From Thermoplasmatota archaeon (lineage in GTDB: Archaea; Thermoplasmatota; Thermoplasmata; UBA10834): DNA of 64,000 bases. The stretch covers positions 192,001 to 256,000 of the forward strand of contig JBFMHR010000003.1 in the NCBI GenBank assembly GCA_040751795.1, read 5' to 3'. This document shows positions 3,138 to 50,314 of this stretch, in pieces. How positions within the stretch are numbered: the stretch's first letter is position 1; the number at the start of each line of letters is the position of its first letter. The notes under the pieces are model-generated. The model did not search any database and was not told the origin of the DNA. It saw nothing but the letters and a program-made list of their open reading frames with translations. Position numbers and translations under genes: made by a program.

Positions 3138-3170
3138 GAGGTACGCCTAACTGCCAATCCCCACCTGAAT

Positions 3171-3243
3171 GCCGTGGTAACTCAGTTGGGAGAGTGCAAG
3201 ACTGAAGATCTTGAAGTCGCTGGTTCAAGTCCGGCCCACGGCA
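3171..3243 (+). tRNA. tRNA-Phe (GAA)
   Basis: Acceptor GCCGTGG/CCACGGC, anticodon arm CAAGA-CTGAAGA-TCTTG, T loop TTCAAGT; CCA not encoded. Confidence 0.97.
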
Positions 3244-3330
3244 CTCGATTCCATACTGGCCGGTCCGCGCCGCGCCCGGGAATAGCTTCATGCCGGCGCA
3301 AGCGCTTCGAGGCCCGAGGAGGGACGTGCG

Positions 3331-3768
3331 ATGCCGATCAAGTCGTTCGAGCTCGTGTCGATGGACGCCAAGAGGTTCACCAAGCTGGGGGAGCGCCCCC
3401 CGCAGCTCAGGGTCGACCACAACACCTCGGTGACGAGCATCTCCGCCCAGTCGGAGAGGGACGCGCTGATCGACTTCACGTTCACGGTCAGCTACGTGGG
3501 GGTCGGCCTGATCAAGATCGACGGCCGCGTCGTCTGGGACGGCGAGGCCAAGGCGGTCGCCTCGCAGTGGGCCAACAAGAAGGAGCTCCCGCCAGAGGTG
3601 TTCAACCCGATCCTCGGCGCGATATTCGCCAACTGCATGCCCGCAGCCGTCGTGGTGGCCAAGGACCTCAGCCTCCCGCCGCCCCTCCCCCCGCCGCAGA
3701 TCGCGATGAAGCAGGGCGCGAAGCCGCCCAAGGCCAAGGACCACAAGTCCTCGATGGAAGTCGCGTGA
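3331..3768 (+). CDS. hypothetical protein, SecB-like fold suspected
   Basis: SD GGAGGG, good codon usage; beta-strands then helices and an LPPPLPPP tail. Confidence 0.7.
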   Translation: MPIKSFELVSMDAKRFTKLGERPPQLRVDHNTSVTSISAQSERDALIDFTFTVSYVGVGLIKIDGRVVWDGEAKAVASQWANKKELPPEVFNPILGAIFANCMPAAVVVAKDLSLPPPLPPPQIAMKQGAKPPKAKDHKSSMEVA

Positions 3769-3775
3769 GCCGCCG

Positions 3776-6154: not shown

Positions 6155-6425
6155 CCTGCCTCTCCTTCCGTCGTCACAAGGCCGTCAGTCGATAGGGGGG
6201 CGCCACCTCGGGTCGCACGCGCCAGACCTCTCCGCGGGGCCGGTCCAGCCGCGTCCTCTGAACGCATCTAAATAACCTGGCCGGCATATATATAGTTGCG
6301 TGACCGGGCATCGCCGCCAGTGTCCCGGGCCCGCGCGCGCGCCCCGCGGACGCCCGCCCCCCGCGGCCGCGGCGCCGTTTTTCGTCCAAAGCGCAATAAG
6401 CCCCCGCACCGATTCCCGGGCGCAG

Positions 6426-11464: not shown

Positions 11465-14205
11465 TCCCAGAACCGCTTCGTGCGCGCGTAGGTTATCTCC
11501 GCAGCGAGTATGTCCCTGAGGAACTCGTCCTCCTCGAGGTGGTACCTCGCGAGGATCCTCGCGGCGGTGTCAGCGCCCACGCCCCTTCCGACCATTGCCA
11601 TGGCCGCCTTCCTGCCGTGCGCCATGACCAGGTTGGCGTTCTTGTAGATCCTCTTCAGCGCCCTCCTCCCCTCCTCGTCGGAGGCCCCCCTCTTGAGGAC
11701 GTCGAAGTCCTTCTTGGCGTAGGGCTGGATGGCGGCGACCAGGACCCCGCCGCACTTCGAGCACCTCACCCTCTCCGGGAGCGAGCCCACGGTCGTCCTC
11801 CTCTGGCTCCTGCAGTTCATGCACACGGTGACGACGTCTTCGGACAGCAGTCTCTCCTTCAGGGCGAGGAGGACGGTCTTGTCCGCCCTCTGCGGCTGGA
11901 CCAGCTCCCGGCGGTCGCCTATCGCCTCGGTCCCCATCGGCGACAGCTTCCCGGCCACGAGCTCGATGGTCCCGTCCTGGATGCGCCTCAGGACGGTCGC
12001 CGTCCCCTCGACGTCCATGTTCTCCCAGAGGGTCTTCGACACCGCCTCCTCGAATATGGGGGAGTGCTCGAAGACGTCGATGAGCTTCGACACGTTCAGC
12101 ATCTTGTAGTCCGCGTCCTTCCGGACGGCGCCGAACTTCTTCGCCACGTGGACGAACTGCCAGCGCAGGTCGGACGAGTTGCGGACAATGAGCCTCATCA
12201 GCTGGTGGAGTCCGGCGGTGTCGGTCTCCTTGATCGTCCTGAGGACGTCGTCCACCCTCAGGCCCCGCGGCACCTCGAGCACGATCGAGTAGGGCTCGGT
12301 GTGGACCCCTATGCTCTCGCCGAACCTTGCGGCCAGCAGTGTGGTGACGAGCTTCGCGAGGGTCTCGTTCACCCTCGTCCCGAAGCAGCAGTTGACGACT
12401 ATGACGCCCTCGCCCTGCTCGACCGTCACCAGCTTGTCCGTCGGGACCGGGAGCCCCTTCTGGGCCGCGACCCACTCCTCGACCTCCCTCCTGGTGTCCG
12501 GGTCCGCGGGGTACACGTCCATCGGGAGCAGCCGGCGCATCGCCCCGACCTCCTGGGCGACCTCGTACGGGACGGGGATCTCCTCGCCTATCCACGAGGG
12601 GGTGGCGCCGATCTCCCTGACCTGCTCCACCATCACCTCGTCCTCCCCCACCTCTATGACGCGCCAGGTCCTGCCGCGGGCGACGAACGTGGCGTAGGGC
12701 TCCGCGTACGAGGCGACGAAGCTCTCGTCCAGCGTTCCGATGACCCTCCTCGACGACACCTCGCGTATCCTGTAGGTCCTCTCGTCGGGGATCATGGATA
12801 TGTTGTCGAAGAAGTGCCTCATGCCGTTCGTCTTCTTCCTGAAGGCGTCCTCGTCGTTCCACAGTATGTGCAGCTCTGCGAGGAGCCTCAGGACCTCGTC
12901 GAAGTCGGCGCGGAGGAGGTTCCTGAAGGGGTAGGCCCTCCTGATGACCGAGTACGCCCAGTCCTTCCCGACCTTCGGCTCAGTGAGGGTCATGGCGACA
13001 AGCTGGTTCGCGAGCACCCCGAGCGGGTTCTCCCGTATCCGGTACCGCTCCAGCTCCTCGAGCATCGCCCTCCGGGCGATGACGAGGCTCTCAGCCGTCT
13101 CGGAGGGGGTCGTGGTGATGACGGTGCCGGTCGACGTCTCGTAGTGCCTGTGCCCGGCCCTCCCCACGCGTTGTATCAGCCGCGTGACCTGCCTGGGGGA
13201 GTTGAACTGTATTGTGAAGTCGGCCGAGCCCACGTCGATGCCGAGCTCGAGCGACGAGGTGCATATCAGCGCCTTGAGCCTCTGCTCCTTGAAGTCGTCC
13301 TCCATCTGCACCCGTATGTCCTTCGACAGCGACCCGTGGTGCACGCCGACGCTGAACGCCTCGTCCCAGAGGTGGTACCTCACGCCGAGCGCCTCGGCGT
13401 AGTCCCTGGTGTTCACGAAGAAGAGGGTCGAGGCGTGCCCCTCGACCAGCTCCCGGCACCTCCTCATCGCCGCGACGTGCTTCTCGTCGGTCTGCAGGCG
13501 GGTTGCCAGGGCCTTGTCGCCGTCCGCCATCCGCGGGCTCTCCACCGAGATCGCCATCTCCTTAGCCGCGGAGACCTTGAGGTCCGTGACCCTCCTCCCC
13601 GCGCCGCCCAGGAAGCCGGAGACCTCGTCGACGGAGCCCACGGTAGCCGAGAGCCCTATCCTCTGGAACTCCCCTGCGATGCCGCAGAGCCGCTCCAGGC
13701 CGACCGCGAGCTGCGCCCCGCGCTCGTCCTCCGCGAGCTCGTGCACCTCGTCCACGACCACGTGCCTGACGTTGGCCAGGTGCCTGCGGAGGTTCCTCCC
13801 GGTGAAGAGGACCTGGAGCGTCTCGGGAGTGGTGATCATGACGTCGGGAGGGGACTTCGACTGCGCCGTCCTCTCCGACTGGGGGGTGTCGCCGTGCCTG
13901 ACCGCGACCTCGACGCCGACCGAGGCCCCCATCTCCTTGAGCCTCTTGAGGAGGTCCCGGTTCAGCGCCCTGAGCGGGGTGACGTAGAGGCATTTGATGC
14001 CCGGCCCGCTCTCCTTGGCCAGGAGCGTCAGGATCGGGAGCATCGCTGCCTCCGTCTTGCCGATGCCTGTCGGCGCCACGAGGAGGAGGTGGTCGCCCGA
14101 CAGGACCGCAGGTATGGCCTTCCTCTGAGGCTCGGTGGGCTCGGTGATGCCCTGTCCTGCGAGGAATGAGTTGAGCCTGGGGTCCAAGAGCTCGAATACG
14201 TTCAT
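11461..14205 (-). CDS. lhr: Lhr-like DEAD/DEAH-box helicase
   Basis: APTGIGKT, DEVHE, SAT, HHGSLS, SSLELGID, QRVGRAGH, C-terminal CxxC..CxxC, RFWD end. Confidence 0.93.
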   Translation of the reverse strand: MNVFELLDPRLNSFLAGQGITEPTEPQRKAIPAVLSGDHLLLVAPTGIGKTEAAMLPILTLLAKESGPGIKCLYVTPLRALNRDLLKRLKEMGASVGVEVAVRHGDTPQSERTAQSKSPPDVMITTPETLQVLFTGRNLRRHLANVRHVVVDEVHELAEDERGAQLAVGLERLCGIAGEFQRIGLSATVGSVDEVSGFLGGAGRRVTDLKVSAAKEMAISVESPRMADGDKALATRLQTDEKHVAAMRRCRELVEGHASTLFFVNTRDYAEALGVRYHLWDEAFSVGVHHGSLSKDIRVQMEDDFKEQRLKALICTSSLELGIDVGSADFTIQFNSPRQVTRLIQRVGRAGHRHYETSTGTVITTTPSETAESLVIARRAMLEELERYRIRENPLGVLANQLVAMTLTEPKVGKDWAYSVIRRAYPFRNLLRADFDEVLRLLAELHILWNDEDAFRKKTNGMRHFFDNISMIPDERTYRIREVSSRRVIGTLDESFVASYAEPYATFVARGRTWRVIEVGEDEVMVEQVREIGATPSWIGEEIPVPYEVAQEVGAMRRLLPMDVYPADPDTRREVEEWVAAQKGLPVPTDKLVTVEQGEGVIVVNCCFGTRVNETLAKLVTTLLAARFGESIGVHTEPYSIVLEVPRGLRVDDVLRTIKETDTAGLHQLMRLIVRNSSDLRWQFVHVAKKFGAVRKDADYKMLNVSKLIDVFEHSPIFEEAVSKTLWENMDVEGTATVLRRIQDGTIELVAGKLSPMGTEAIGDRRELVQPQRADKTVLLALKERLLSEDVVTVCMNCRSQRRTTVGSLPERVRCSKCGGVLVAAIQPYAKKDFDVLKRGASDEEGRRALKRIYKNANLVMAHGRKAAMAMVGRGVGADTAARILARYHLEEDEFLRDILAAEITYARTKRFWD

Positions 14206-14430
14206 CTGCAGACGGTCACCTGCGGCCGTCGGGATTAAACCTTCTCGGCGATCCCTCCCCTGTCCGTCGCCTCCGCGCAGGGGGAGGCCCCGACCTTAGG
14301 TCAGTAGGCCGCAAAATGAGGGCAATACGGGGCGGAAGCGATTTATAGCGGGAGCCGGTTCGAAACCCTGACGGCGGGCAATGTACGGAATCATACTGCG
14401 CCGTCGGTAAACCATTCGGGGGAATAGGAA

Positions 14431-15816
14431 GTGAAGAAGGCATTAGGTGCGTTTTTCGCATCGGCAATAGTGATGGCACTGGCGTTCAGCGCGGTAGTCG
14501 TCAGTGCAGGAAATGGGAGCACCTGGCTCAGGGAGACGGAGGTGCCGGAGGAGACCCCGGTCGCCGACGACCTTGGGCTGGACGACTGGACCATCATGGT
14601 CTACATCGCCGGGGACAACAACCTCGAGATCAACGCCCTGGACGACCTCGATGAGATGGAGCTCGTGGGCTCATCCGACACTGTCAACATCATCGTCCTC
14701 ATGGACACCCTGACGCTCGTCGAAGGCACCCACTGGTACGTGATCGAGGCCGCGGCGGACGAGATCGACCACATCGACCTCGAGGCCGGCGTGAACGACT
14801 GCGACTGCGAGGCGGTCGCGGGCGCCTGCCCCGACGGGGACCTGAACATGGGCGACGGCGAGACGCTGAAGGACTTCATCGTGAAGTCGGCCGCCTACGC
14901 CCCGGCCGAGCAGTACATGCTCGTCCTCTGGGACCACGGCGGCGGCTGGTACGGCGTCTGCTGGGACGACAGCTCCGTCAGGGAGGAGGACGGCAGGATC
15001 GACAGGCTGACGGTCGACGAGTTCGGCAACGCCATAAGGGCGGCCGAGGAGGAGGCCGGCATATGGTTCACCGTGATCGGGTTCGACGCCTGCCTCATGT
15101 CGATGCTGGAGATCGCCTACGAGATACGCGACCTGGCCGACTACATGATCTCGTCCGTGACGGGCATACCCGTCGCCGGATGGCCGTACGACCTCTCGTT
15201 CGACGAGCTCATCGCCGACTCCAGCCTGGACGCGCTCACGCTCTCCGATGAGATCATCGAGGGCTACATCGAGTACTACTCCCTGTGCGCGGGCGAGGGC
15301 CTCGGCGGATGGATGGGCGTGACGCTGAACCTCATCGACCTGTCGGTCATCGGCGACCTCGCCATGGCCATGGACGCCCTGTCGTACGACCTGCAGGAGG
15401 CCTTCGAGTCCGGCGAGGTGAGCAGGGGGGCCCTGCTCTCCATCGCGAGCTCGCTGACCCCGGCGCTCGAGATGTACGGGCAGTCGTTCGCGTTCTCGGA
15501 CATCGGCGTGCTCGCCGAGGGCCTCGCGAACTTCGAGGCGTTCGAGGAGAGCGCGACAGCGGTTTCCGAGCTGATGCCGGCCGCGGTCCCGATGGTCGAA
15601 TGGGTCAGCCAGACGACCGGCGGCGCGTTCAACACGACCGGCCTCACGGTGTACTTCCCGGCCGCGTACTACTACACCTACATGGACTACGCGTACGAGA
15701 CCGAGGAGGAGGCGGCGGAGAACGACGAGCTCATCTACTTCGGGCTCGACTTCGCCACCGACACGAACTGGGACGAGTTCGTCCTGTACACCTGCCCGGC
15801 GGTCGTAGAGGAATAG
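14431..15816 (+). CDS. secreted clostripain-family (C11) cysteine peptidase
   Basis: Signal peptide; WTIMVYIAGDNNL, LWDHGGG (His), GFDACLM (Cys). Confidence 0.9.
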   Translation: MKKALGAFFASAIVMALAFSAVVVSAGNGSTWLRETEVPEETPVADDLGLDDWTIMVYIAGDNNLEINALDDLDEMELVGSSDTVNIIVLMDTLTLVEGTHWYVIEAAADEIDHIDLEAGVNDCDCEAVAGACPDGDLNMGDGETLKDFIVKSAAYAPAEQYMLVLWDHGGGWYGVCWDDSSVREEDGRIDRLTVDEFGNAIRAAEEEAGIWFTVIGFDACLMSMLEIAYEIRDLADYMISSVTGIPVAGWPYDLSFDELIADSSLDALTLSDEIIEGYIEYYSLCAGEGLGGWMGVTLNLIDLSVIGDLAMAMDALSYDLQEAFESGEVSRGALLSIASSLTPALEMYGQSFAFSDIGVLAEGLANFEAFEESATAVSELMPAAVPMVEWVSQTTGGAFNTTGLTVYFPAAYYYTYMDYAYETEEEAAENDELIYFGLDFATDTNWDEFVLYTCPAVVEE

Positions 15817-15896: not shown

Positions 15897-17201
<1,305 letters not shown>

Positions 17202-17465
17202 CCTCCGCCCAGGGCCAGGTCCTCAGCGAGAGGGCCCATCCACGGGAGCGTCTGAGGCCAGCGCGCGCGTTCGGCGTCATTCAACCATTTGAACAGGGTA
17301 AGATGGGGCATTTGACCATAAATCGAGGGATATATCTCGGCAATCAACCATTCTAATGTCCGATTTGCGGCACAATGATGATTATGGTTGTCCGCGGTTC
17401 GCCGTTCGCAGACCGGCGGCAGGACAGGCGCGTCGCGCAGCTCGCCGCCGGGGCGGAAGGTGAGC

Positions 17466-18755
17466 ATGATGTCCCCGAAGGGAGTTGCACGGAACAGCGG
17501 CCTGCGAGACCAGACCGACAGGAACCAGAACGGCCTCAACAACCCGCCCGTTGCAAAGCCCAGGCTCGGGCGCATCAAGCTGGTCGACACGACCTGCAGG
17601 GACGGGGAGCAGATGCCGGGGATCTCCTTCACCTGCGACGAGAAGGTCGGCATCGCCCTCGGGCTCGAGGGGCTCGGGGTGGAGCAGATCGAGACCTTCG
17701 CCACGTACAACGACAGCGACAGGAGGTGCGCGGAAATCCTCAGCGCCCGCCTGGGCAGCGCCTCGCTGATGGGGTGGAACAGGATGGTCAAGGCCGACGT
17801 CGACGACTCCGTCTCGCACGGGGTGGACGCCGTGTCGGTCTCGACCGACACCTCCGACATAGCGCTCGCGAGCAAGCTCAGGATCACGAGGGCGCAGCAG
17901 ATCGATGCGCTGGTGGACTGCGTCGAGCACGCCAAGGCGCACGGCGTCTACGTGTGCTTCAACGCGGGCGACGCCACGAGGACGGACCCCGACTACCTCG
18001 TCGAGTTCGCGAGGGCCGGGCTCGAGGCGGGCGGGGACAGGTTCAGGATCTGCGACACGGTCGGGGTCCTCACCCCCGCAGGTGCATCGTCCCTCGTCTC
18101 CAAGGTCATGTCCAGCGTCGACATCGACGTCGAGTTCCACGCCCACAACGACTTCGGGCTGGCGGTGGCCAACGCCCTCGCCGCGTGCGAGGCAGCCGCC
18201 GCGTTCCCCGAGAGGACGCTGTGGCTATCCACCACGGTGAACGGGCTGGGGGAGCGCGCCGGCAACGTGCCGCTCGAGGTCCTGGTGATGAACCTCCGGG
18301 CCCACTACGGGGTGGAGACTTACAGCGCGGAGCGCATCATGCCGCTCTGCAGGCGCGTCGAGAAGGCCTCGGGGCTGGGGATACCGCCCAACCACCCCGT
18401 CGTCGGCGGGAACATGTTCACGCACAAGTCCGGCATACACGTGGACGGCGTCCTGAAGGAGCCGGCGCTCTACGAGGCCTTCGACCCTGGGCCGCTCGGC
18501 CTGTCCAGGAGGATAGCGATAGGGAAGCACTCGGGGAAGGCCTCCATCAGGCACAAGCTCGACCAGATGGGCCTCTCGGTCCCGCCCGGGGCGGTGGAGG
18601 CGATCCGCTGCGAGGTGAGCGCTTCTGGGGAGAGGGTGAAGAGGGACCTCACCGACGATGAGTTCGCGCGGATATGCTCGAAGTACGCGGGCGGCTCGTC
18701 CCCCAACGAGAAGAGGGTCGCGGCGATCGACGCCAACATCCCGTGGGGGAAGTGA
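17466..18755 (+). CDS. DRE-TIM acyltransferase (homocitrate synthase NifV/LeuA family; candidate Re-citrate synthase)
   Basis: DTTCRDGEQ, HAHNDFGLA, NGLGERAGN, HKSGIHVDG, GKHSG; no LeuA regulatory domain. Confidence 0.88.
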   Translation: MMSPKGVARNSGLRDQTDRNQNGLNNPPVAKPRLGRIKLVDTTCRDGEQMPGISFTCDEKVGIALGLEGLGVEQIETFATYNDSDRRCAEILSARLGSASLMGWNRMVKADVDDSVSHGVDAVSVSTDTSDIALASKLRITRAQQIDALVDCVEHAKAHGVYVCFNAGDATRTDPDYLVEFARAGLEAGGDRFRICDTVGVLTPAGASSLVSKVMSSVDIDVEFHAHNDFGLAVANALAACEAAAAFPERTLWLSTTVNGLGERAGNVPLEVLVMNLRAHYGVETYSAERIMPLCRRVEKASGLGIPPNHPVVGGNMFTHKSGIHVDGVLKEPALYEAFDPGPLGLSRRIAIGKHSGKASIRHKLDQMGLSVPPGAVEAIRCEVSASGERVKRDLTDDEFARICSKYAGGSSPNEKRVAAIDANIPWGK

Positions 18756-40595: not shown

Positions 40596-41075
40596 ATGAG
40601 CTTCGAGCTAAATGTCGTCAGCAACACGCCCCTCACGCCGCTGAACGACATAGACGAGGTCGCCATCCTGTTCCTCAACCAGGTCGGGTACTTCCAGAAG
40701 GGCTACGGCCCCAAGACCGACGTCACGGACATCAGGGACAGCGTCCCCTACAGGCTCATGGTCGACCACTTCCTGGCGAGGATGGACAAGGCATGGGTCG
40801 TCGAGGACCTCGCCACGTCCCTCGGGACGACCAAGGCGACGGTCTACAGGCACATCAACAAGCTGAAGGGCTTCGACATCCTCGAGGAGATGAACGTCGA
40901 GCAGCCCGACGGCTCAAGGAAGAAGGGCTATCGGATAAGGTACGGCAACCTGAGCAAGGCGTGGAACTTCACGGAGGCGCACGTGCAGGTCGCGATGGAG
41001 AACTACCGCAAGACGGTGGACCACCTGCAGGAGCTGGCCTCCAAGAGAGGTGAGAAGCATGGCAAAAAGAGATGA
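40596..41075 (+). CDS. winged-HTH transcriptional regulator
   Basis: VEDLATSLGTTKATVYRHINKL. Confidence 0.8.
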   Translation: MSFELNVVSNTPLTPLNDIDEVAILFLNQVGYFQKGYGPKTDVTDIRDSVPYRLMVDHFLARMDKAWVVEDLATSLGTTKATVYRHINKLKGFDILEEMNVEQPDGSRKKGYRIRYGNLSKAWNFTEAHVQVAMENYRKTVDHLQELASKRGEKHGKKR

Positions 41076-41346
41076 CGCGATCGTGCTGACCCCTGGCTCG
41101 CTGTACAGGGTCAGGAGCCTGGAGTCGAGGGAGAAGCCGCTCGAGACGATAGGGGTGTTCAAGGGCTACGCGGCGGTGGCCCACGACACGGCCATCGTGA
41201 TGGAGGTCGAGCTCTCGACCGGCGGGAGCAAGGAGAGGTTCATGCGCCTGATCCCGTCGCACATGGTCATCTCCATCGACGTCCTCAAGGCGGAGAAGGA
41301 GGAGGAGCAGAAGGAGAAGGACAGCAACGCTGTCTACTTCGGATGA
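41059..41346 (+). CDS. hypothetical small beta-barrel protein
   Basis: SD GAGGTGA; RLIPSHMVISIDV; overlaps upstream gene. Confidence 0.75.
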   Translation: MAKRDDAIVLTPGSLYRVRSLESREKPLETIGVFKGYAAVAHDTAIVMEVELSTGGSKERFMRLIPSHMVISIDVLKAEKEEEQKEKDSNAVYFG

Positions 41347-41358
41347 CCTCTCGGGGAC

Positions 41359-41643
41359 ATGATCGTCAAGCTCAGCCCGACCGAGATGAGGATACTGAAG
41401 ATTCTCCAGGACTGGTACCCGGTCACGGTCGAGGAGATCAGGGAGGAGCTCAGGATGAGGGAGGACACCCTCCATAGGGCCCTCAAGTCCATGGTGGTAA
41501 AGGGGGTCGTCGCCCTCGAGCCGCTGAGCGACAAGACCTACGTGAGGCTCCTCATGTCTGACGTGAGCGTCGCCCCCAAGGGTAGGAGGCCGAAGACGGG
41601 GGACGGGCCCGAGGACTTCTACGACGCGCTGGTGTACCAGTGA
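41359..41643 (+). CDS. small winged-HTH protein
   Basis: LSPTEMRIL..YPVTVEEIREEL..LHRALKSM..KGVV. Confidence 0.75.
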   Translation: MIVKLSPTEMRILKILQDWYPVTVEEIREELRMREDTLHRALKSMVVKGVVALEPLSDKTYVRLLMSDVSVAPKGRRPKTGDGPEDFYDALVYQ

Positions 41644-41694: not shown

Positions 41695-43248
41695 GTGGGC
41701 TACTACGACGAGTTCATCCAGGCCATCGTCTCGGGCGATGTGACGACCAGGGACGCCGTCCTGCGGCTCAAGGCGAGGCTGTGCAGGAGGCACGGCCTGT
41801 CCAGGGTGCCCACCAACTACGAGATACTCGCCCATGTCCCCGAGGGGCTGAGGGAGGTCGTCGAGCCCCTCCTGAGGAACAAGCCCGTCAGGACGATCAG
41901 CGGGGTCGCCCCCGTCGCCGTGATGACGAGCCCGTACGAGTGCCCCCACGGCAGGTGCTCGTACTGCCCGGGGGGCGTCGCGAACAACAGCCCCCAGTCC
42001 TACACGGGCAGGGAGCCGGCCGCGCTCCGCGCGGCCATGAACGACTTCGACCCGCACAGGCAGACCTCGTCGCGGCTGGAGCAGCTCAGGGCAATCGGCC
42101 ACAGGACCGACAAGGTCGACCTCATCGTCATGGGCGGGACGTTCACATCGAGGCCGGAGGACTACCAGGAGTGGTTCGTCAAGCGCTGCTTCGACGCGAT
42201 GAACCGGCAGGAGTCGCGGGACATAGCCGCAGCGCACTCGCTGAACGAGGCCGCTCCGTCCAGGTGCGTCGGGCTCACGGTCGAGACGCGGCCGGACTGG
42301 TTCGCCGCCGATCAGATAGACACCTCCATGCGCCTCGGCGCCACGAAGGTGGAGTTCGGGGTCCAGATACTGGACGACGCGGTCCTGGACGGCGTGAAGC
42401 GCGGCCACCGCGTCGATGCGGTGGTCGAGGCGACTGCGAGGGCGAAGGACGCGGGGCTCAAGGTGTGCTACCACGTCATGCCCGGCCTCCCGGGCAGCTC
42501 CCGCGAGAAGGACCTCGCCTCATTCGCCAGGATGTTCGAGGACCCGAGGTTCCGGCCGGACATGCTCAAGATATACCCGACGCTCGTGGTCAAGGGGACC
42601 GGGCTCCACGGCCAGTGGGAGAGGGGCGAGTACGCGCCGCTCTCGGTCGAGGAGGGCGTCTCCCTCCTCGCCGAGATGAAGTCCATGGTCCCTCCCTACG
42701 TCAGGATACTCAGGATCCAGAGGGACATCCCCGCGCACCTCATCGAGGCCGGCATCAGGAAGGGGCACCTCAGGGAGCTCGTCGCAGAGAGGATGTCCGC
42801 TGAAGGACGGGCCTGCGGATGCATCCGCTGCCGCGAGGTCGGGCACCTCGGAGTGGACGCCTCCGACAGGGCGACGGAGCCCGGCCTGCGCTCCGTGGCA
42901 TACGACGCCTCCGGGGGCAGGGAGGTGTTCCTCTCGTTCGAGTCGGAGGGCAGGGGCTCGCTGGTCGGCTACGCCAGGCTGCGGCTCCCTGGCGGGGGAT
43001 CGGACCATGCCTTCGTGAGGGAGCTCCATGTCTACGGCCAGATGGTCCCGATCCACGGGGAGCCCGGCGCCAAGTGGCAGCACCGCGGCTTCGGAGAGCG
43101 CCTGCTGGCCGAATGCGAGCGTCTGGCGTCATCCGAGGGTCGGCCGGAGCTCAGGGTCACCAGCGGCGTGGGCGTCAGGGGCTATTACCGGGCCCTGGGG
43201 TACGAGAGGCGGGGCCATTACATGGCCAAGCCGCTCGGCGGGCCATGA
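41695..43248 (+). CDS. elp3: Elp3 radical SAM/GNAT tRNA U34 modification enzyme
   Basis: RTISGVAPVAVM, CPHGRCSYCPGG, ETRPD, KIYPT, RELHVYG, QHRGFG. Confidence 0.96.
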   Translation: MGYYDEFIQAIVSGDVTTRDAVLRLKARLCRRHGLSRVPTNYEILAHVPEGLREVVEPLLRNKPVRTISGVAPVAVMTSPYECPHGRCSYCPGGVANNSPQSYTGREPAALRAAMNDFDPHRQTSSRLEQLRAIGHRTDKVDLIVMGGTFTSRPEDYQEWFVKRCFDAMNRQESRDIAAAHSLNEAAPSRCVGLTVETRPDWFAADQIDTSMRLGATKVEFGVQILDDAVLDGVKRGHRVDAVVEATARAKDAGLKVCYHVMPGLPGSSREKDLASFARMFEDPRFRPDMLKIYPTLVVKGTGLHGQWERGEYAPLSVEEGVSLLAEMKSMVPPYVRILRIQRDIPAHLIEAGIRKGHLRELVAERMSAEGRACGCIRCREVGHLGVDASDRATEPGLRSVAYDASGGREVFLSFESEGRGSLVGYARLRLPGGGSDHAFVRELHVYGQMVPIHGEPGAKWQHRGFGERLLAECERLASSEGRPELRVTSGVGVRGYYRALGYERRGHYMAKPLGGP

Positions 43249-43312
43249 CCCGACGCTATGATTATATGAGTAGAACCTTTATCGCATAAGCGACTCAGAA
43301 AGGGGGTACTGT

Positions 43313-45193
43313 TTGGCCTGTCTGAAATGTGGCACCATGACCGAGGACGGCGCCCTCCTCTGCGAGAACTGCGCCGACGAATCCATCATGGACCCCAGGT
43401 TCTTCATCAATCCTTCACTCATAGGCAGGAGCGTGTTCACGAGGCTCAGGTCCGAGGGGTCGGGAGCCGCCGCCCTGGGACCGGTGGCCGGCCCCGACGT
43501 CTCGTTCATCGCCTCCTCGGACCTGGATAGGGCGGTCAGGGACGCCGTCGTCACCGCAATGGGGCCGGAGGAGGCCAGGCCGTTCTGCGACAGGTGCAAC
43601 ACCATCCTGTCGCACCTGGGCGTGCCCCTGAAGTTCGACGACCGCGTGATGCTCCTGACCGACGACTCCGCGGCGACCATATCGACGATAGTCCAGAGGG
43701 TGAACGCGGTCGACGCTGCGCACCCCGGTTGCGGCCCGACGGACCTTTACCTGCGTATGGGAATGATCTACTGGTGCGCCCACCACAGCGTGCTCCTGAG
43801 GGCCGCGCCGAAGCGGTGGGCCGCCAGGAAGCGCGAGGAGTTCTACGGCAAGGCCAGGGACTACCTGTCGAAGGTCCCCGAGAACGACGACCTGCGGTCG
43901 ATCGCCGAGTACGACCTTGGCGTCCTCGGGGTCGGGGCGCGTGACTGGGATGCAGCGCGGGACCACCTCACCAAGGCCCTCTCGCACTTCGCCGGGGACC
44001 TCAGCATCATCGAGCACCTCGCGAGGGCGCACCTCGAGCTGGGGAACTCGATGGACGCGATGGCCAGGATAGATGAGGCGCTGGCTTCCGCCGACGTCCC
44101 GCGGCTGTGGGTCCTCAAGGGCGAGCTGCTCGAGAACATGAACATGCTCCAGGAGTCGCTGGAGTGCTACAGCAGGGCCCTGACGCTGGACCCGAGGTAC
44201 ATGGACGCGCACGACCACATCATCGCGGTCCTCAGGGGACTGGGGAGGATGGAGGAGGCCTCCCTCGCCGAGCGCCAGCGCGCCATGGCGAAGACCCCAG
44301 ACCTGGACCAGAAGGTCGCCGACCTGATCAACGAGCTGAAGAAGGCGTCGGCCGAGGTCGCCGCGCCCCACGTCAAGCACCCCCCGCGTCCCGTGCCGAC
44401 TCACGAGGCTCCGAAGGCAGAGGAGCCAGTGTCGTACCCGATAGAGCTGGCCAAGGAGGCGCTCAGGTCGGGCAACTACGACTCCGCCATCCAGATGTCC
44501 GAGCAGATCCTCAGGGAGGACCCGGACTCGCGCGAAGTCCAGCTGATGCTCATCGAGTCCCTGGTCGCCACAGGCGACCTCGCGAGGGCCTCGTCCGCCG
44601 TCCGCTCGTTCTACGAGAAGAACCGCGAGGACCCCCACGCCTGGTACTGGCGGGGCGTCGTCGCCGACAGGGAGGGCAAGTGGGGCGCGGCCGTCCAGTA
44701 CTTCTCCAAGTCGGTCACCCTCGACCCGTCCTACATCGGCTCGTGGCTCGCGATGGGCGACCTCCTTCTCAAGAACGACAAGGTCAGCGGAGCCGATGAG
44801 AGCTACTCGCGCGTGCTCCAGATGGACGGCGCCAGCCCGCAGGCATGGCTCGGCAAGGCCAAGGCAATGCACAAGCTGGGCAGGTGGGGAGCCGCGATCC
44901 AGTGCATGGACAAGTACAACATGCTGGCGCCTCGGGACAAGGACGCGTGGCTCCTCAAGGCCGACCTGCTCTTCGAGAAGGAGAAGCACAGGCGCGCCGT
45001 CGAGGCCTACGACAAGTTCCTCGAGCTCGACCAGGACGACTCGTACGCCCTCGGCAGGAAGGGGATAGCCCTCAACGCCCTGGGGATGACGGACGAGGCG
45101 AGGAAGTGCCTCGAGGAGGCCGTCAGGCTGGACCCGGCGAACAGGGACGCGGCGAAGTGGCTGAAGCTGCTCGTCGAGGAGGGCGGGGCCTGA
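43313..45193 (+). CDS. TPR-repeat protein with N-terminal zinc ribbon
   Basis: CLKC..CENC; many TPR units (AWYWRG, AWLGKA, AWLLKA); own TATA near 43260. Confidence 0.88.
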   Translation: MACLKCGTMTEDGALLCENCADESIMDPRFFINPSLIGRSVFTRLRSEGSGAAALGPVAGPDVSFIASSDLDRAVRDAVVTAMGPEEARPFCDRCNTILSHLGVPLKFDDRVMLLTDDSAATISTIVQRVNAVDAAHPGCGPTDLYLRMGMIYWCAHHSVLLRAAPKRWAARKREEFYGKARDYLSKVPENDDLRSIAEYDLGVLGVGARDWDAARDHLTKALSHFAGDLSIIEHLARAHLELGNSMDAMARIDEALASADVPRLWVLKGELLENMNMLQESLECYSRALTLDPRYMDAHDHIIAVLRGLGRMEEASLAERQRAMAKTPDLDQKVADLINELKKASAEVAAPHVKHPPRPVPTHEAPKAEEPVSYPIELAKEALRSGNYDSAIQMSEQILREDPDSREVQLMLIESLVATGDLARASSAVRSFYEKNREDPHAWYWRGVVADREGKWGAAVQYFSKSVTLDPSYIGSWLAMGDLLLKNDKVSGADESYSRVLQMDGASPQAWLGKAKAMHKLGRWGAAIQCMDKYNMLAPRDKDAWLLKADLLFEKEKHRRAVEAYDKFLELDQDDSYALGRKGIALNALGMTDEARKCLEEAVRLDPANRDAAKWLKLLVEEGGA

Positions 45194-47784
45194 TGGTCGA
45201 GCTGGACAAGATCCTCAGCGAGCGCTCGGACGAGCGCATCCTCTCGTCCGTGGCGTCGCTCCCGGACCAGGAGTTCGGCTCCCTGGTCGAGAAGATCCTG
45301 GGGTACCTCGAGCTCAAGACGCTCCGCAGCCGGCCGCGGGGCACGTTCATCATCGCGGACTGCGAGCACAGGCCGGACGGCAGGAAGTACGCCGTGTTCT
45401 TCTCCAGGAGGGACGAGGCCATCGTCAGGGGCGACGTGGAGAGCCTGACCTCCTACATGGAGAAGACGGGCTCCGACAGCGCCCTCGTGCTCACGGTGAG
45501 CGTGGTCGCCCCGGAGGCCCAGGCCTTCCTGAACAAGCGCGGCATCGGGTTCGCGGACGGGCCCAAGCTCGCAGCGCTCCTCCGCAGGTTCGACCTCGAC
45601 AAGGCCGTGGTCGGCTACGCGGACTCCAAGAAGGCGGAGGTCCCGCTCGAGCCGGAGCGCGCCAAGGCCGCCGGGGCGAGGCTCGAGGACGCGATGCGCA
45701 CCGGCTACGACGCCCTCTCCTCCAAGGACCTCATGCGGGCGCTGGAGGCCTTCGACCTGGCGATATTCCTCGACGACACCTACGACGTCTCCTGGAGGCT
45801 CAAGGGCAACACGCTGGACGAGATGGGCTACCACGAGCAGGCGCTGGAGTGCTACAAGCGCGCACTGGAGCTCCTCCCCGAGGGCGAGGAGACATGGTAC
45901 TCCCTCGGGAACTGCTTCTACGCGCTCGGCCGGTTCAACGAGGAGATCATGTGCTACGACAAGGCGCTCTTCTACAACCCCACGCTGCAGAAGGCGCTGA
46001 TCAACAAAGGCTCCACGCTCCACAGGCTCGGCCGCTACCAGGAGGCCCTCGACACATACGACAAGGTCCTCAAGATCAACTACAGGCTCGAGAAGGTCCA
46101 CAACAACAAGGGCGCCACGTTCCACGCGATGGGGCGGGGCCCGGAGGCGCTCGACTCGTACAACAGGGCCATCGAGCTGAAGCACGACTACGTCGAGGCA
46201 TGGGTCAACAAGGGCAACCTCCTCTACGAGCTCGCCCGGTACGACGAGGCCCTCGAGGCGTTCTCCCAGGTGACCGGGTTCAGGCCGGAGTACCCCAAGG
46301 GCTGGTACCTGCAGGGCCTGGTGCTCCGGAAGCTCGGCAGGGCCGTCCAGGCCAAGGCCGCGTTCGAGCAGGCCATAAGGCTCGACCCCGACATGGTCGA
46401 GGCTAGGAGGGCGCTTGAGGAGGAGTCCAAGAAGGTCGCGGACAGGTTCGTCGAGGTCCCGAGGCTCGTCAAGGACATCTTCGCCAGGCGCCCGGAGGAG
46501 GAGGAGCCGCCTCCTCCCCCGGAGGAGGAGCCGCCGGCGCCCATGGTGGCGGAGGACGAGGTCGCCAGGGACCGGGAGCAGAGGGTCGAGGCCATCGCCG
46601 AGGAGCTCTACGGCGACCGGGCCGAGCTGCTCCTGCTCCTCGGTCGGTTCGACGAGGCCTTCGACTTCCTTGGGAAGTCGCTCAGGCTCGAGGGCGAGAG
46701 CGCGCCCCTCCTCACCGCCGCCGGCAACGTGCTGTACCGGCAGGGGAAGCGCGACGCGGCGATCAAGTCCTTCGAGCACGCCGTCGCGGCCGACCCGTCG
46801 TACGTGCCGGCCCTGATCAACCTGCACACCGCCCTGGTCGACTCGGGGGAGTGGGACAGGGCGAACCAGGTGGGCGACTCCCTCAGGCGCTCGGACGCCG
46901 GATGGCAGGGCCACGCGCTGGCATCGCTGGCCTCCAGGCACAGGAAGGACTACCCGAGGGCCATCGAGGACGCCGAGAACGCCATCGCCGCGGACAACCT
47001 CTCCATGCTCATGAACTACAGGGGGCTGCTGAAGCTCGAGGCGGACGACCTCGCCGGCGCGGGGGAGTCCTTCGAGCGAGCGAAGTCCATGGCCCTGGAC
47101 CCGTCCGAGGCCCACAACAACTCCGGCCTGGTCCTGTACAGGAAGGGGGACGTCGAGGCGGCGAGCCTGGAGTTCGACAGGGCGATAAGGATGGCCAAGG
47201 CCAACGCCGCGGCGTGGAATAACCGGGGCTGCGTCCTCTACAAGATGGACAGGCTGCGCGAGGCGGTCGCCTGCTTCGAGGAGTCGATCCTCATATCGCC
47301 CACCACCGTCGCGGCGAACAACAAGGGGTTCAGCCAGCTCACCCTCGACTCCCTACCGGAGGCCCTCGCCTCCTTCGACCACTCGCTGAAGCTCGGGGAG
47401 ACGGCGGAGGCATACAACAGCAGGGGCATCGTGCTGCTGAGGATGGGCCAGGTGGAGGAGTCCCAGGCGGCCTTCAGGGAGGCGCTGAGGCTCTCGCCCG
47501 TGTTCAAGGACGCCCTCTCCAACCTGAAGAGGGCGGAGTCGCTCAGGCCGCTCCCGAGGCCCCCGGAACCGGAGTCGGGGCCCAAGGCCCCGCCGAGGAT
47601 GGAGGTCGTGGGCGGGAAGGAGCCGTCCTCCGTGAAGTTGTCCGACCTCACCCTCCAGAACCTGAGGGGGAAGCGGAAGTCGGAGCTCGAGGCGATGTGC
47701 GAGTCCGTCGGCGCGAGCCCGAGGGGCTCGAAGACGGAGCTCATCAACCGCCTGCTGAGGACGAGGAAGCAGCTCGAGAAGTGA
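45193..47784 (+). CDS. TPR-repeat protein with N-terminal Mrr-like domain and C-terminal SAP motif
   Basis: TGATG coupling; many NKG/NRG TPRs; KSELEAMCESVGASPRGSKTELINRL. Confidence 0.88.
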   Translation: MVELDKILSERSDERILSSVASLPDQEFGSLVEKILGYLELKTLRSRPRGTFIIADCEHRPDGRKYAVFFSRRDEAIVRGDVESLTSYMEKTGSDSALVLTVSVVAPEAQAFLNKRGIGFADGPKLAALLRRFDLDKAVVGYADSKKAEVPLEPERAKAAGARLEDAMRTGYDALSSKDLMRALEAFDLAIFLDDTYDVSWRLKGNTLDEMGYHEQALECYKRALELLPEGEETWYSLGNCFYALGRFNEEIMCYDKALFYNPTLQKALINKGSTLHRLGRYQEALDTYDKVLKINYRLEKVHNNKGATFHAMGRGPEALDSYNRAIELKHDYVEAWVNKGNLLYELARYDEALEAFSQVTGFRPEYPKGWYLQGLVLRKLGRAVQAKAAFEQAIRLDPDMVEARRALEEESKKVADRFVEVPRLVKDIFARRPEEEEPPPPPEEEPPAPMVAEDEVARDREQRVEAIAEELYGDRAELLLLLGRFDEAFDFLGKSLRLEGESAPLLTAAGNVLYRQGKRDAAIKSFEHAVAADPSYVPALINLHTALVDSGEWDRANQVGDSLRRSDAGWQGHALASLASRHRKDYPRAIEDAENAIAADNLSMLMNYRGLLKLEADDLAGAGESFERAKSMALDPSEAHNNSGLVLYRKGDVEAASLEFDRAIRMAKANAAAWNNRGCVLYKMDRLREAVACFEESILISPTTVAANNKGFSQLTLDSLPEALASFDHSLKLGETAEAYNSRGIVLLRMGQVEESQAAFREALRLSPVFKDALSNLKRAESLRPLPRPPEPESGPKAPPRMEVVGGKEPSSVKLSDLTLQNLRGKRKSELEAMCESVGASPRGSKTELINRLLRTRKQLEK

Positions 47785-47834: not shown

Positions 47835-48080
47835 TCAGGCTATGTTCATGACGACTACGTCACGGACCGCCTTCATCTCGCTGAAGGGCAGTATGAGCCT
47901 TCCCTGAGCGTCCGTCTTGAAGAGCCTCGGCTCGACCTCCTCCGCCGGGATCACGAGGACGTTCTGCAGCTCGCCGGACTTCGTGTCGATCAGGAAGTTC
48001 TCAATCATTCCGAGTATCTGGCCGTCGTTGGTCATCACGGTTTTGCCCTTCAGCTCGGTGATGAATTTCCGCATTGACAT
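47835..48080 (-). CDS. PRC-barrel protein (CdpB1-like)
   Basis: LKGKTVMTNDGQILG..IDTKSGEL..LPFSEMKAVRDVVV. Confidence 0.88.
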   Translation of the reverse strand: MSMRKFITELKGKTVMTNDGQILGMIENFLIDTKSGELQNVLVIPAEEVEPRLFKTDAQGRLILPFSEMKAVRDVVVMNIA

Positions 48081-48091
48081 CCCATCTCCAG

Positions 48092-50314
48092 CTATCTGTA
48101 GTAGCTGAGGCCATTATCATCTTTGCTCTTCTTAGACGTTGCGGTCTTGATCTCCTGGGCCTGCGATTCGTAGTACTTCATGGTGTCCTTGTCGGTCGAC
48201 GGCCTCACTGTAGCGAGCGCGCGCTCGAAGTGCTCCATGGTCACCTTCGAGGCCTTCTTCGACTGCCTGAGGGCGCCGAGCGCCGCCTCGCGGCAGAGGT
48301 TCTCGATGTCCGCGCCGACGAATCCCTCGAGCCTCTCCGCCAGGACGCCCAGGTCAACGCCCTCGAGGGGCATCCCCTTCGTGTGGACCTCCAGGATCTT
48401 CAGCCTGCTGGGCCTGTCGGGGACGGGCGTGAGCAGCAGCTTGTCGAACCTGCCTGGCCTGAGCAGCGCCGGGTCGACGATGTCCGGGCGGTTCGTCGCC
48501 GCGATGACGAACACGTTCTCCATGTCCTCCAGCCCGTCCATCGACGTGAGGAGCTGGTTGACGATCCGCTCCGTCGCACCGGAGTCGTTGCGCCCGCCCC
48601 GCCTCGGGGCGATGGCGTCGATCTCGTCGAGGAACACGATGCACGGCGAGACCTGCTTCGCCTTCTTGAATATCATCCTGACGGCCTTCTCGCTCTCCCC
48701 GACCCACTTGGACATGATCTCCGGGCCCTTGATGGGGATGAAGTTAGCCTTCGACTCGTTGGCGATCGCCCTCGCGATGAGGGTCTTCCCGGTGCCGGGC
48801 GGGCCGAAGAGCAGGACCCCCCTCGGCGGCCTGATGCCCAGCCTCCTGAACGACTCGGGGTCCTCCAGCGGCAGTTCGATCGCCTCGTGCAGGTCCTTCT
48901 TGACATGGTCGAGCCCGCCCACGTCCTGCCAGGTCGTCTTCGGTATCTCGACGAGGACCTCCCTCATCGCGCTGGGCTCGATCTCCTTCAGCGCGTCCGA
49001 GAAGTCCGCCGAGGTGACCTTCATCTTCTCGAGGAGCTCGGCGGGTATCGGCTTGCCGAGGTCTATGTCGGGGAGGTACCTCCTCAGGGCCCTCATGGCC
49101 GCCTCCCGCGCGAGCGCGGCCATGTCCGCGCCCACGAACCCGTGAGTGGACTCCGCGATCCTCTCGACCGCGATGTCCTCCGCGAGGGGCATGCCCCTCG
49201 TATGTATCTGGAATATCTCCTGTCTCCCCGCCACGGTCGGGACGCCTATCTGTATCTCGCGGTCGAACCTTCCCGGCCGCCTGAGGGCGGGGTCTATGGC
49301 GTCCTCGCGGTTGGTGGCTGCTATCACAATGACGTTGCCCCTCGTCGTGAGCCCGTCCATCAGCGTCAGGAGCTGGGCGACCACCCTCCTCTCGACCTCC
49401 CCGTGGACCTCGTCCCTCTTAGGGGCGATGGAGTCGAGCTCGTCGATGAATATCACGGACGGGGCGTTCTTCTCGGCCTCGGTGAAGATCTCCCTGAGGC
49501 GCTCCTCGCTCTGGCCGTAGAACTTCGACATTATCTCCGGGCCCTGTATGGAGAAGAAGTTGGCCCCGGCCTCGTTGGCGACCGCCCTGGCGATTAGGGT
49601 CTTGCCGGTGCCTGGCGGGCCGTACAGCAGGACGCCCTTGGGCGGGTCTATGCCGAGGCGCGTGAATACCTCGGGGTGCTTGAGGGGGAGCTCTATCATC
49701 TCCCTGATCCTCTGCAGCTCGTCCTCGAGCCCTCCGATGTCCTCGTAGGTGACGGAGGGCCTCGCCAGCTCCGTCACCTCCACCGGCTCGGTCTTGACCG
49801 ACAGCTCCGTCGACTCGGAGACCTGGACGATCCCGTTGGGGGCCGTGGACGCGACCACGAAGGGCAGGAACCCGCCCATGAGCGCGATGTTGGGGATGAT
49901 TATCTCGTCCCCCTTGACCAGGGCCCTGTTCAGGAGGCCCTTCTTGAAGAGCCCCTCGACGCCCTGGCCGAACCTCACCCTCTTCCCCGAGGGTATCTTG
50001 GGGGCCACGACGACCTTCTGGGCGGCCTGCGCCTCGGCCTTCCTGACCACGACGTTCTCGCCGATGGAGACCCCGGCGTTGCCCCTGATCATGCCGTCGA
50101 CCCTGATTATGCCCTTGCCCTCGTCCTCGTGGGCCGCCCTGAAGACCTTCGCCGCGGTCTTCTTGCCGCCGGTTATCTCTATTATGTCCCCGACGTCGGC
50201 GCCCAGCTCCTTCCTCGTGAACGAGTCTATCCTGGCCCTCCCGAGGCCCACCTCGGACTGGTGGTGGGCCCGGGCGACCCTCAGGGTGATGCCTTCCGCT
50301 TGTTTCTTGGCCAT
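48092..50314 (-). CDS. cdc48: CDC48/VAT AAA+ ATPase
   Basis: N domain plus two AAA modules with GPPGTGKT and RPGRFD. Confidence 0.97.

Follow-up and report, generated by a model that had tools for sequence, protein, structure and literature searches.

How does a domain of the restriction-nuclease type come to stand at the front of a large repeat protein, and what does that protein do together with the second repeat protein whose gene overlaps its own? The question is raised by two adjoining genes in a 64,000-nucleotide stretch of DNA (the window) from a Thermoplasmatota archaeon, namely positions 192,001 to 256,000 of contig JBFMHR010000003.1 in assembly GCA_040751795.1, a genome of 2.05 Mb in 53 contigs that is 93% complete; coordinates are those of the window unless a locus of another genome is named. 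Gene A (43313..45193, + strand, 626 aa, TTG start), delimited by its open reading frame and translation and by its tetratricopeptide repeat (TPR) families, encodes in order a zinc ribbon, a helical region, a TPR block, a proline-rich linker and a second TPR block. Gene B (45193..47784, + strand, 863 aa) encodes an Mrr-fold head, a TPR block, an acidic proline-rich linker, a second TPR block, a proline-rich spacer and a basic SAP-like tail. As a preliminary description of the sequence had it, the two frames are joined by a TGATG stop/start overlap (45191..45195, + strand), in which the last A of gene A's TGA stop (45191-45193) is also the first base of B's ATG (45193-45195). We find that A and B make up a genuine module of two genes, conserved and undescribed, whose domains are known ones and which is, in our reading, a pseudo-nuclease scaffold. 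Our best explanation, which we regard as evenly poised between right and wrong, is that they form a non-enzymatic, nucleic-acid-tethered pair of TPR scaffolds with a housekeeping role in Thermoplasmata.

The head of B (aa 1-140, 45193..45612, + strand) has the PD-(D/E)xK fold of the Mrr_cat family without the (D/E/Q)xK motif. An Mrr_cat-like pattern of about 110 residues had been recognised in it; this stretch is aa 23-130, and the Pfam model Mrr_cat (PF04471) matches aa 24-130 over positions 5-115 of its 115, with an E-value of 5.5e-7 and 30.1 bits against a cut-off of 21. Most of the 114 listed B proteins likewise carry a precomputed PF04471 match. Among the three Pfam families listed for the head at E<=10 is NA-iREase1 (PF22722; E 0.0027), whose 18.1 bits lie below its cut-off of 27. 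A fold search was needed because sequence and profile searches of the head against Protein Data Bank (PDB) entries were weak: phmmer against PDB sequences gave a chance match only, and a profile search reached the AF1548 structure (1y88) only at E 0.056. Modelled with AlphaFold from an alignment of 16 sequences, the head reaches a predicted local distance difference test (pLDDT) score of 89 and shows the order alpha-beta-beta-beta-alpha-beta. Its structural matches include AspBHI (VIA Z 12.0, root-mean-square deviation 3.7 over 137 aligned residues; Foldseek E 6.9e-4), AF1548 (1y88; Z 10.6, E 4.8e-4), MspJI (Z 10.3, E 6.3e-5) and EndoMS (Z 8.8, E 1.7e-4), with EcoT38I also among the Foldseek matches, which range from E 6e-5 to 7e-4. 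A tRNA-splicing endonuclease is found among the fold matches as well (Z 6.6), and the jaw domain of Rpb5 recurs at Z of about 6-8; XPF/ERCC1 chains are absent from the matches listed by Foldseek and VIA. The head thus falls within Mrr_cat by family model and within the PD-(D/E)xK group by core fold. Together, the Pfam match above cut-off and the matches between model and known structures confirm the predicted restriction-endonuclease fold, and the outcome that had been named in advance as fatal to the assignment, namely no such fold hit for the N-terminus, did not occur.

Retention of the fold is not accompanied by retention of the catalytic motif. Profile alignment to AF1548 (1y88) places the D of that protein at D56 of B and its ExK at F69-F70-S71, and the FE position of helix 1 is represented by E27-F28-G29, with the helix-1 Glu displaced; the earlier reading of FE as FG and of QxK as FFS is therefore upheld. 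In all 113 close homologues position 56 is D or E. At position 69, F, L and Y are the three commonest residues and account for 110 of the 113, and position 71 is S or T; an acid at 69 or a K at 71 occurs in 0/113. Of 24 aligned orthologues sampled class-wide, 20 have an acid at position 56 and none has (D/E/Q)xK, so the pairing of a strand-2 D with a strand-3 (D/E/Q)xK that marks an active nuclease is missing from the B head. Because the (D/E/Q)xK motif is gone in orthologues and close homologues alike, we judge that the head is most likely catalytically dead. In comparison with the Mrr/type IV enzymes AspBHI, MspJI and AF1548, B therefore keeps a homologous fold, the strand order and the strand-2 acid D56, whereas it has F-F-S for the strand-3 motif and a displaced helix-1 Glu. 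It differs from them further in that some 600 aa of TPRs and a SAP-like tail are joined to the head, and in that B is a core syntenic gene outside restriction systems.

Dead nuclease folds serve other purposes elsewhere, and two precedents are relevant to the B head. The N-terminal jaw of Rpb5 uses a non-catalytic restriction-endonuclease-like fold as a structural module, as B may do; it has no sequence relation to the head, stands in another context, and its Z range may reflect a mere common arrangement of elements. The second precedent is ERCC1, the non-catalytic partner of XPF: its dead nuclease domain is described as binding a partner peptide and single-stranded DNA and as being bound by the TPRs of FANCG (PMC6320978). 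Distant B orthologues likewise combine a dead nuclease head with a (HhH)2 tail, a likeness of design and not of family; ERCC1 is an ERCC4-family protein that lacks a TPR array and works with an active paralogue, whereas A and B most likely have no active nuclease between them. By analogy with ERCC1, the B head need not be a DNA binder, and it could instead act as a binding or oligomerisation module.

Behind the head, two TPR blocks make up most of B. The first covers about aa 166-433 (45688..46491, + strand; Pfam stretches at aa 200-410) and the second about aa 454-785 (46552..47547, + strand; Pfam stretches at aa 474-767); for the whole protein TPR_1 matches at E 1.4e-71 in 10 stretches. Between them lies the acidic proline-rich linker (aa 434-453, 46492..46551, + strand), with 9 P in 20 residues, and after the second block comes a further proline-rich spacer (aa 786-805, 47548..47607, + strand) with 8 P in 20. 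Across 24 sequences the first block carries near-invariant Asn residues at N271, N304/N305 and N339. They may correspond to the Asn ladder seen in TPR superhelices that bind peptides, OGT being an example.

The 73-residue tail (aa 791-863) has an isoelectric point (pI) of 9.8 and is the only basic part of A or B. Within it lies a helix-extended-helix motif of SAP type (47671..47760, + strand). In what follows, f1 denotes the family of the source genome and f2, f3 and so on other family groups, while L numbers stand for loci and G numbers for genomes. For the SAP-like ending claimed at the outset, orthologous tails give the clearer scores: that of L013 scores 25.9 bits with SAP, that of L020 scores 35.4 with SAP_new25 (cut-off 26.3), and the third gene of L033 reaches 25.3 with SAP (cut-off 23.9). 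The match of the window's own tail falls short and is taken up below. These similarities would place the tail among the SAP-type modules, for which nucleic-acid binding is predicted.

Gene A opens with a CxxC-x10-CxxC zinc ribbon (C3, C6, C17 and C20; 43319..43372, + strand). Its four Cys residues are invariant in 24/24 aligned A proteins, which bears out the N-terminal ribbon proposed earlier even though the Pfam matches are weak and below cut-off (DZR and Zn_Ribbon_1, E 0.006-0.016, with DZR at 0.006); the two conserved CxxC knuckles predict a metal site. The region that follows (aa 21-200, 43373..43912, + strand) is modelled by AlphaFold (pLDDT 84) as a low-confidence loop and then helical repeats with a conserved GVP motif, and its approximately 180 residues have conserved positions of their own (G38, P57 and G103-x-P105). 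Foldseek with the N-terminal model gave no PDB match at E<=0.001, with weak rows for 14-3-3 and kinesin light chain (KLC) TPRs, a result that still leaves room for a known fold. The first TPR block of A spans about aa 201-356 (43913..44380, + strand; Pfam stretches at aa 211-300) and the second about aa 377-626 (44441..45190, + strand; Pfam stretches at aa 380-615), with TPR_1 at E 7.1e-32; the linker between them (aa 357-376, 44381..44440, + strand) has 7 P in 20 residues. Each of the two proteins is thus a tandem-TPR protein with two blocks split by a proline-rich linker, as first described. An N-terminal zinc ribbon followed by TPRs is a common architecture, and A has the same outline as generic zinc-ribbon-TPR proteins; it is set apart from them by the motifs of its 180-residue region and by its fixed partnership with B. 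Atlas searches with A and B returned scores of 0.86-0.88 only, leads that are consistent with zinc-ribbon-TPR and Mrr_cat proteins; among them the feature search gave zinc-ribbon-TPR clusters at 0.87-0.88, again as leads.

Is the pair a resident of these genomes or a visitor? A survey of gene order had been proposed as a means of telling core from patchy occurrence, and the A-B pair proves to be core. The B head is found in 24/24 other genomes of the family and in 3/3 genomes of the sister family, and it has a single match in the source genome. The pair is present in 39/40 family genomes, the source genome included, and the lone f1 genome without B (G275, 84% complete) lacks A as well. Across the class, a profile of the B head matched 152/301 genomes. 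By family, matches were obtained in 38/39 genomes searched in f1, 12/13 in f9, 36/41 in f16, 7/7 in f15, 5/5 in f18 and 5/5 in f21; the counts were 2/35 in f6, 1/37 in f11 and 1/33 in f19, families in which many genomes are listed as 99-100% complete assemblies. The 114 B proteins, the window's own among them, are nearly all 850-880 aa long (two are shorter, at 529 and 798 aa), and the 19 loci obtained in a related-locus search with a single protein all belong to metagenome-assembled genomes (MAGs) of uncultured Thermoplasmata, Thermoplasmatota or 'Methanobacteriota'. Carriers with named records are uncultured Thermoplasmata MAGs throughout, and their B proteins are annotated as 'tetratricopeptide repeat protein', 'hypothetical protein' or 'superkiller protein 3'.

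By a hand count over the class-genome tables, both genes were located in 104 genomes; A lies directly upstream of B in 78 of them, from 14 families (38 in f1, 3 in f2 and 37 in f3, f4, f7, f9, f13, f17, f18, f21, f22, f24, f26 and f33), two are cut by contig ends and 24 are unlinked. The other outcome named in advance as fatal, an absence of linkage in other genomes, did not occur either. In 24 of the 31 loci inspected, B is immediately preceded on its own strand by a zinc-ribbon gene, in most cases one that overlaps it, and the A/B junctions of relatives are overlaps of 1-49 nt or small gaps. Because the genes overlap and remain linked across 14 families, we suggest that their products act together; the heteromeric scaffold proposed at first is a putative one, deduced from gene linkage. 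Prediction of a complex between A aa 1-300 and B aa 1-445 from 24-row alignments scored 0.00 in two runs, which amounts to no answer and weighs neither way.

A common transcript would fit this arrangement. The 64-nt spacer between A and the Elp3-like gene upstream contains a TATA-box-like motif, TATGATTATAT (43257..43267, + strand), and then the Shine-Dalgarno-like GGGGGT (43302..43307, + strand), 5 nt before the TTG of A; there is no gap between A and B. The ATTATAT core of the motif is invariant in 9/9 aligned family loci while its flanks vary, and relatives have GGAGGAG or GGGGGT at the same place as the window's ribosome-binding site. We infer from sequence that TATGATTATAT is the archaeal TATA box for both A and B. 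The single promoter originally proposed is thus a putative one, in keeping with the gapless junction, the conserved box and the Shine-Dalgarno-like site. A scan for sigma-70 promoters and terminators, whose coverage does not extend to archaeal promoters, gave no promoter-like site; terminator-like sites numbered 2, on the minus strand, against an expectation of 2.2. In one genome (L075, G019; 4059-7568, - strand) Elp3 and A form a single stop-free frame of 1170 aa; as A's own start region is kept there, the Elp3-A spacer most likely just has no in-frame stop.

The pair is modular. A measures 286-1056 aa and B 444-2148 aa. The tails of distant B proteins that were tested carry (HhH)2 in 6/6 cases (HHH_5, 38-55 bits; cut-off 27). 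In L023 a zinc ribbon, SAP and (HhH)2 follow one another, and in L040 many zinc ribbons precede (HhH)2. B is split near the acidic linker in two families, giving Mrr-TPR and SAP-TPR-(HhH)2 proteins in f21 (L033), and in f15 (L036) a third gene whose scores are for TPR alone, apart from a faint match to SAP_new25 (E 0.06). The A-type N-terminus is found, in other classes of the phylum, on giant TPR proteins of 1900-2300 aa, none of which has a B-type head. One such locus (L071, 3246-13925, + strand) encodes a 2291-aa zinc-ribbon-TPR protein and, 25 nt later, a 1259-aa TPR protein with a SLFN_AlbA_2 head (42.6 bits; cut-off 25.3); its layout suggests a two-gene design parallel to A-B but with another head. 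Exchange of the tail among small nucleic-acid-binding modules is, in our view, the strongest indirect evidence that tethering may be part of the function.

A fusion of A and B was sought and set aside. The giants do not supply one, being without a B-type head. In L074 (G016; 3160-6432, - strand) A and aa 1-316 of B lie in one open frame of 1091 aa, which then ends in a frameshift; this frame is ambiguous among a fusion, a decaying gene and assembly indels, and it is not used as evidence.

The scaffold explanation can now be put in full. A and B would be co-transcribed, vertically inherited, non-enzymatic TPR scaffolds of uncultured Thermoplasmata. The dead Mrr-type head of B would serve in binding or oligomerisation, and its small basic tail would tether the protein to DNA or another nucleic acid, by a SAP module in the source genome and in other families by (HhH)2, to which zinc ribbons and SAP are at times added. 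A would contribute the zinc ribbon and more TPR surface, and the TPR Asn ladder may hold extended peptides, either of clients or of the partner's Pro/Glu-rich linkers. The role would be a housekeeping one, in chromosome-associated organisation or in the recruitment of other factors. Of this picture, the data establish the anatomy, the fold, the lost catalytic motif, the linkage of the genes, their core distribution and the exchange of tails, while co-transcription, association of A with B, binding of nucleic acid and the cellular process are deduced from these.

Several observations weigh against this explanation. The tail of the window's B protein matches SAP (PF02037) with E 1.6e-4 and 21.6 bits, below the cut-off of 23.9, and the B proteins of L024, L034, L035, L037-L039 and L041 stop after their TPRs, without a tail that can be recognised. 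The head has a mildly acidic pI of 5.9, and across the class none of its polar surface residues is kept, F28, A109 and L126 being its only conserved positions there; it may touch no nucleic acid at all. With the tail alone being basic, the original suggestion that the pseudo-nuclease senses modified DNA finds no footing either. Within the family, in turn, H59, D62, S71, R72, D122 and K125 are invariant or nearly so, which could also be explained by a lineage-specific ligand or a non-canonical active site. Finally, the 24 unlinked genomes comprise 20 of f16, 3 of f10 and 1 of f5, and in two of them A and B share a contig at distances of 61 and 104 kb. Linkage is therefore not universal, and either an obligate 1:1 complex is not needed everywhere or the unlinked genes are paralogues.

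The neighbours of the pair offer further hints as to its role. On the + strand upstream of A lie an Elp3-like radical-SAM/acetyltransferase gene (41695-43248) and, before it, three small genes of 159, 98 and 94 aa (up159, up98 and up94; 40596-41643), of which the 159-aa and 94-aa ones look winged-helix-like by eye. Convergent with B on the - strand are an 81-aa PRC-barrel gene (47835-48080) and Cdc48 (48092-50314), so that the locus does converge on cdc48, as was first noticed. The PRC-barrel protein is 91-100% identical across the family. The block up159-up98-(up94)-Elp3-A-B-PRC-Cdc48 is present, complete or cut by a contig end, in 11/11 loci of the family and order, with up94 matched in eight family (f1) loci only. 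It recurs in part in f22, f26 and f33: up159, up98 and Elp3 stand upstream of A in f1, f2, f26 and f33, and PRC-barrel and Cdc48 are convergent to B in f1, f2, f22, f26 and f33. Outside the subclade of this block A-B alone persists.

A specific form of the scaffold explanation would make the pair an adaptor for division, segregation or the cytoskeleton, joining the chromosome to tubulin-family filaments or to PRC-barrel/Cdc48. In L030 (f18; 13769-14704, - strand) and L031 (f22; 13178-14113, - strand) the gene immediately upstream of A, on the same strand, encodes a divergent Tubulin/FtsZ-family protein (311 aa; 38.8 and 40 bits in Pfam against a cut-off of 33), and another such gene lies about 4 kb off in L033 (f21; 17053-18036, - strand), the three proteins measuring 311-327 aa. 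In L029 (f4) a Ras/Roc-family small GTPase gene (5845-6696, - strand; Ras 119.5 bits) follows 30 nt 3' of B on the same strand. PRC-barrel proteins have a role in archaeal division and are often encoded beside Cdc48 (10.1101/2023.03.28.534520). On the other hand, PRC-barrel and Cdc48 are on the strand opposite to A-B and form a separate unit. The idea of Cdc48 as a partner thus comes down to adjacency, since the PRC-barrel/Cdc48 neighbourhood is known in its own right from the same work; what stands of it is the synteny within one subclade. Clustering of neighbours over the 31 loci gave no partner shared outside the Elp3...Cdc48 block apart from the three FtsZ-like genes, and in the source genome none of the tubulin-family matches is within 135 kb of A-B. 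With neighbour contexts that are few and were picked out post hoc, we consider a division adaptor unlikely. The source genome has eight tubulin/FtsZ-family matches in all (contigs C12, C23, C45 and C51), many for a 2-Mb archaeon; on the window's contig there are three, at distances of 135-150 kb.

A bolder version would see in A-B the conserved core of an unrecognised chromosome-associated scaffold system of Thermoplasmatota. Anchoring to DNA would be the task of swappable heads, either dead Mrr or AlbA_2, and of swappable tails, namely SAP, HhH2 or zinc-ribbon arrays. The Asn ladders would recruit cytoskeletal or segregation factors, such as FtsZ-family proteins, small GTPases and PRC-barrel/Cdc48, and the system would be an archaeal counterpart of the TPR-based chromatin adaptors of eukaryotes. 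We regard this larger claim as unlikely.

The neighbours can also be read in terms of RNA. On this account the tail and head would bind RNA, and the TPRs would organise enzymes of tRNA modification or processing. It would make sense of the Elp3 gene directly upstream of A in f1, f2, f26 and f33, of an archaeosine-synthase-like gene (DUF5591, TGT_C2 and PUA) 3' of B in L032, of the AlbA_2 (Schlafen-type) head that takes the place of Mrr in another class, and of the tRNA-splicing endonuclease among the fold matches of the head. In f16, a stand-alone A-like gene of about 420 aa is preceded by what we take, from N-terminal sequences, to be QueA-like and bacterial-type TGT-like genes (L067, 3928-7346, + strand; L068, 5338-8708, - strand), identities that are tentative; queuosine-type genes would be unusual in archaea. 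The TGT context is missing in L066 and L069, however, and the three neighbour contexts were chosen post hoc among more than 12. Elp3 has its own stop, with the conserved promoter-like box between it and A. Moreover, (HhH)2 and SAP are chiefly binders of duplex DNA (PMC6320978, PMC4201288). For the same reason as with the division adaptor, the paucity and post-hoc choice of contexts, we hold an RNA-linked scaffold to be quite unlikely.

Could B instead be an active, non-canonical DNA-repair nuclease similar to FAN1? FAN1 is the well-studied protein that unites SAP, TPR and a PD-(D/E)xK nuclease, and in PaFAN1 all three contact DNA (PMC4201288). The acid retained at position 56 in 20/24 orthologues and the six family invariants listed above would suit such an enzyme. 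Set against this, the second acid and the lysine are found in 0/24 and 0/113 sequences, and the family-specific polar residues are lost in the sister family and beyond. FAN1 has the order SAP-TPR-VRR_nuc, a single short TPR domain and an active two-metal site, whereas B has the reverse order, Mrr-TPR-TPR-SAP, a lost motif and a second TPR protein as partner. Its nuclease-like domain is Mrr_cat and not VRR_nuc, which is absent both from the Pfam families listed for the head and from the best 25 of 40 rows for whole B. We give an active nuclease only a slim chance.

A role in defence was among the options of the preliminary description. Read as an anti-virus or conflict system, with the TPRs as sensor and the Mrr-type head as effector or adaptor, it has the typical occurrence of Mrr_cat in type IV restriction, the weak NA-iREase1 match of the head, a weak TPR-S match of A and the differences in heads (Mrr, AlbA_2) and tails (SAP, HhH, zinc ribbon) between lineages on its side, yet we deem it very improbable because the catalytic motif is gone, Pfam finds no NTPase or other effector domain in A or B, the pair is single copy at one and the same locus among housekeeping neighbours in 38/39 family genomes instead of in patchy islands, and PADLOC-DB 2.0 yields weak rows for the TPR regions only (PrimPol, E 1.4e-4 and 2.6e-6; TPR, E 0.0085) and none for the head, so that no PADLOC model fits. 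The likeness to NA-iREase1, by its Pfam name a NACHT-associated inactive restriction endonuclease, lies in an inactive domain at the N-terminus of a repeat protein and goes no further: the match is below cut-off, A and B have no NACHT/STAND NTPase, and the pair is core rather than conflict-associated, which places B outside that family. The term 'iREase' does not occur in PMC7159879.

With these alternatives weighed, the non-enzymatic scaffold pair remains our preferred account of A and B. The preliminary description had not recognised the architecture, and our literature searches likewise found no description of the A-B family, with the qualification that the supplementary neighbourhood lists of 10.1101/2023.03.28.534520, which lay outside these searches, might include these TPR genes. 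As far as named records show, the carriers are all uncultured, which may explain how a class-wide core module has come to be annotated only as 'tetratricopeptide repeat protein'.

The anatomy and evolution of A-B are clear and somewhat unusual, and nothing about them yet forces a surprising mechanism. The module is a clear case in nature of a nuclease domain of the restriction type that has become a non-catalytic part of what would be a housekeeping scaffold, one in which the predicted nucleic-acid-binding tail and, in another class, the head have been exchanged between lineages. Should tethering to DNA prove false, a first study of structure and interactions would still have a well-defined target in the pair; should it prove true, A and B would point to a level of chromosome organisation, or of factor recruitment, that has gone unstudied in archaea.

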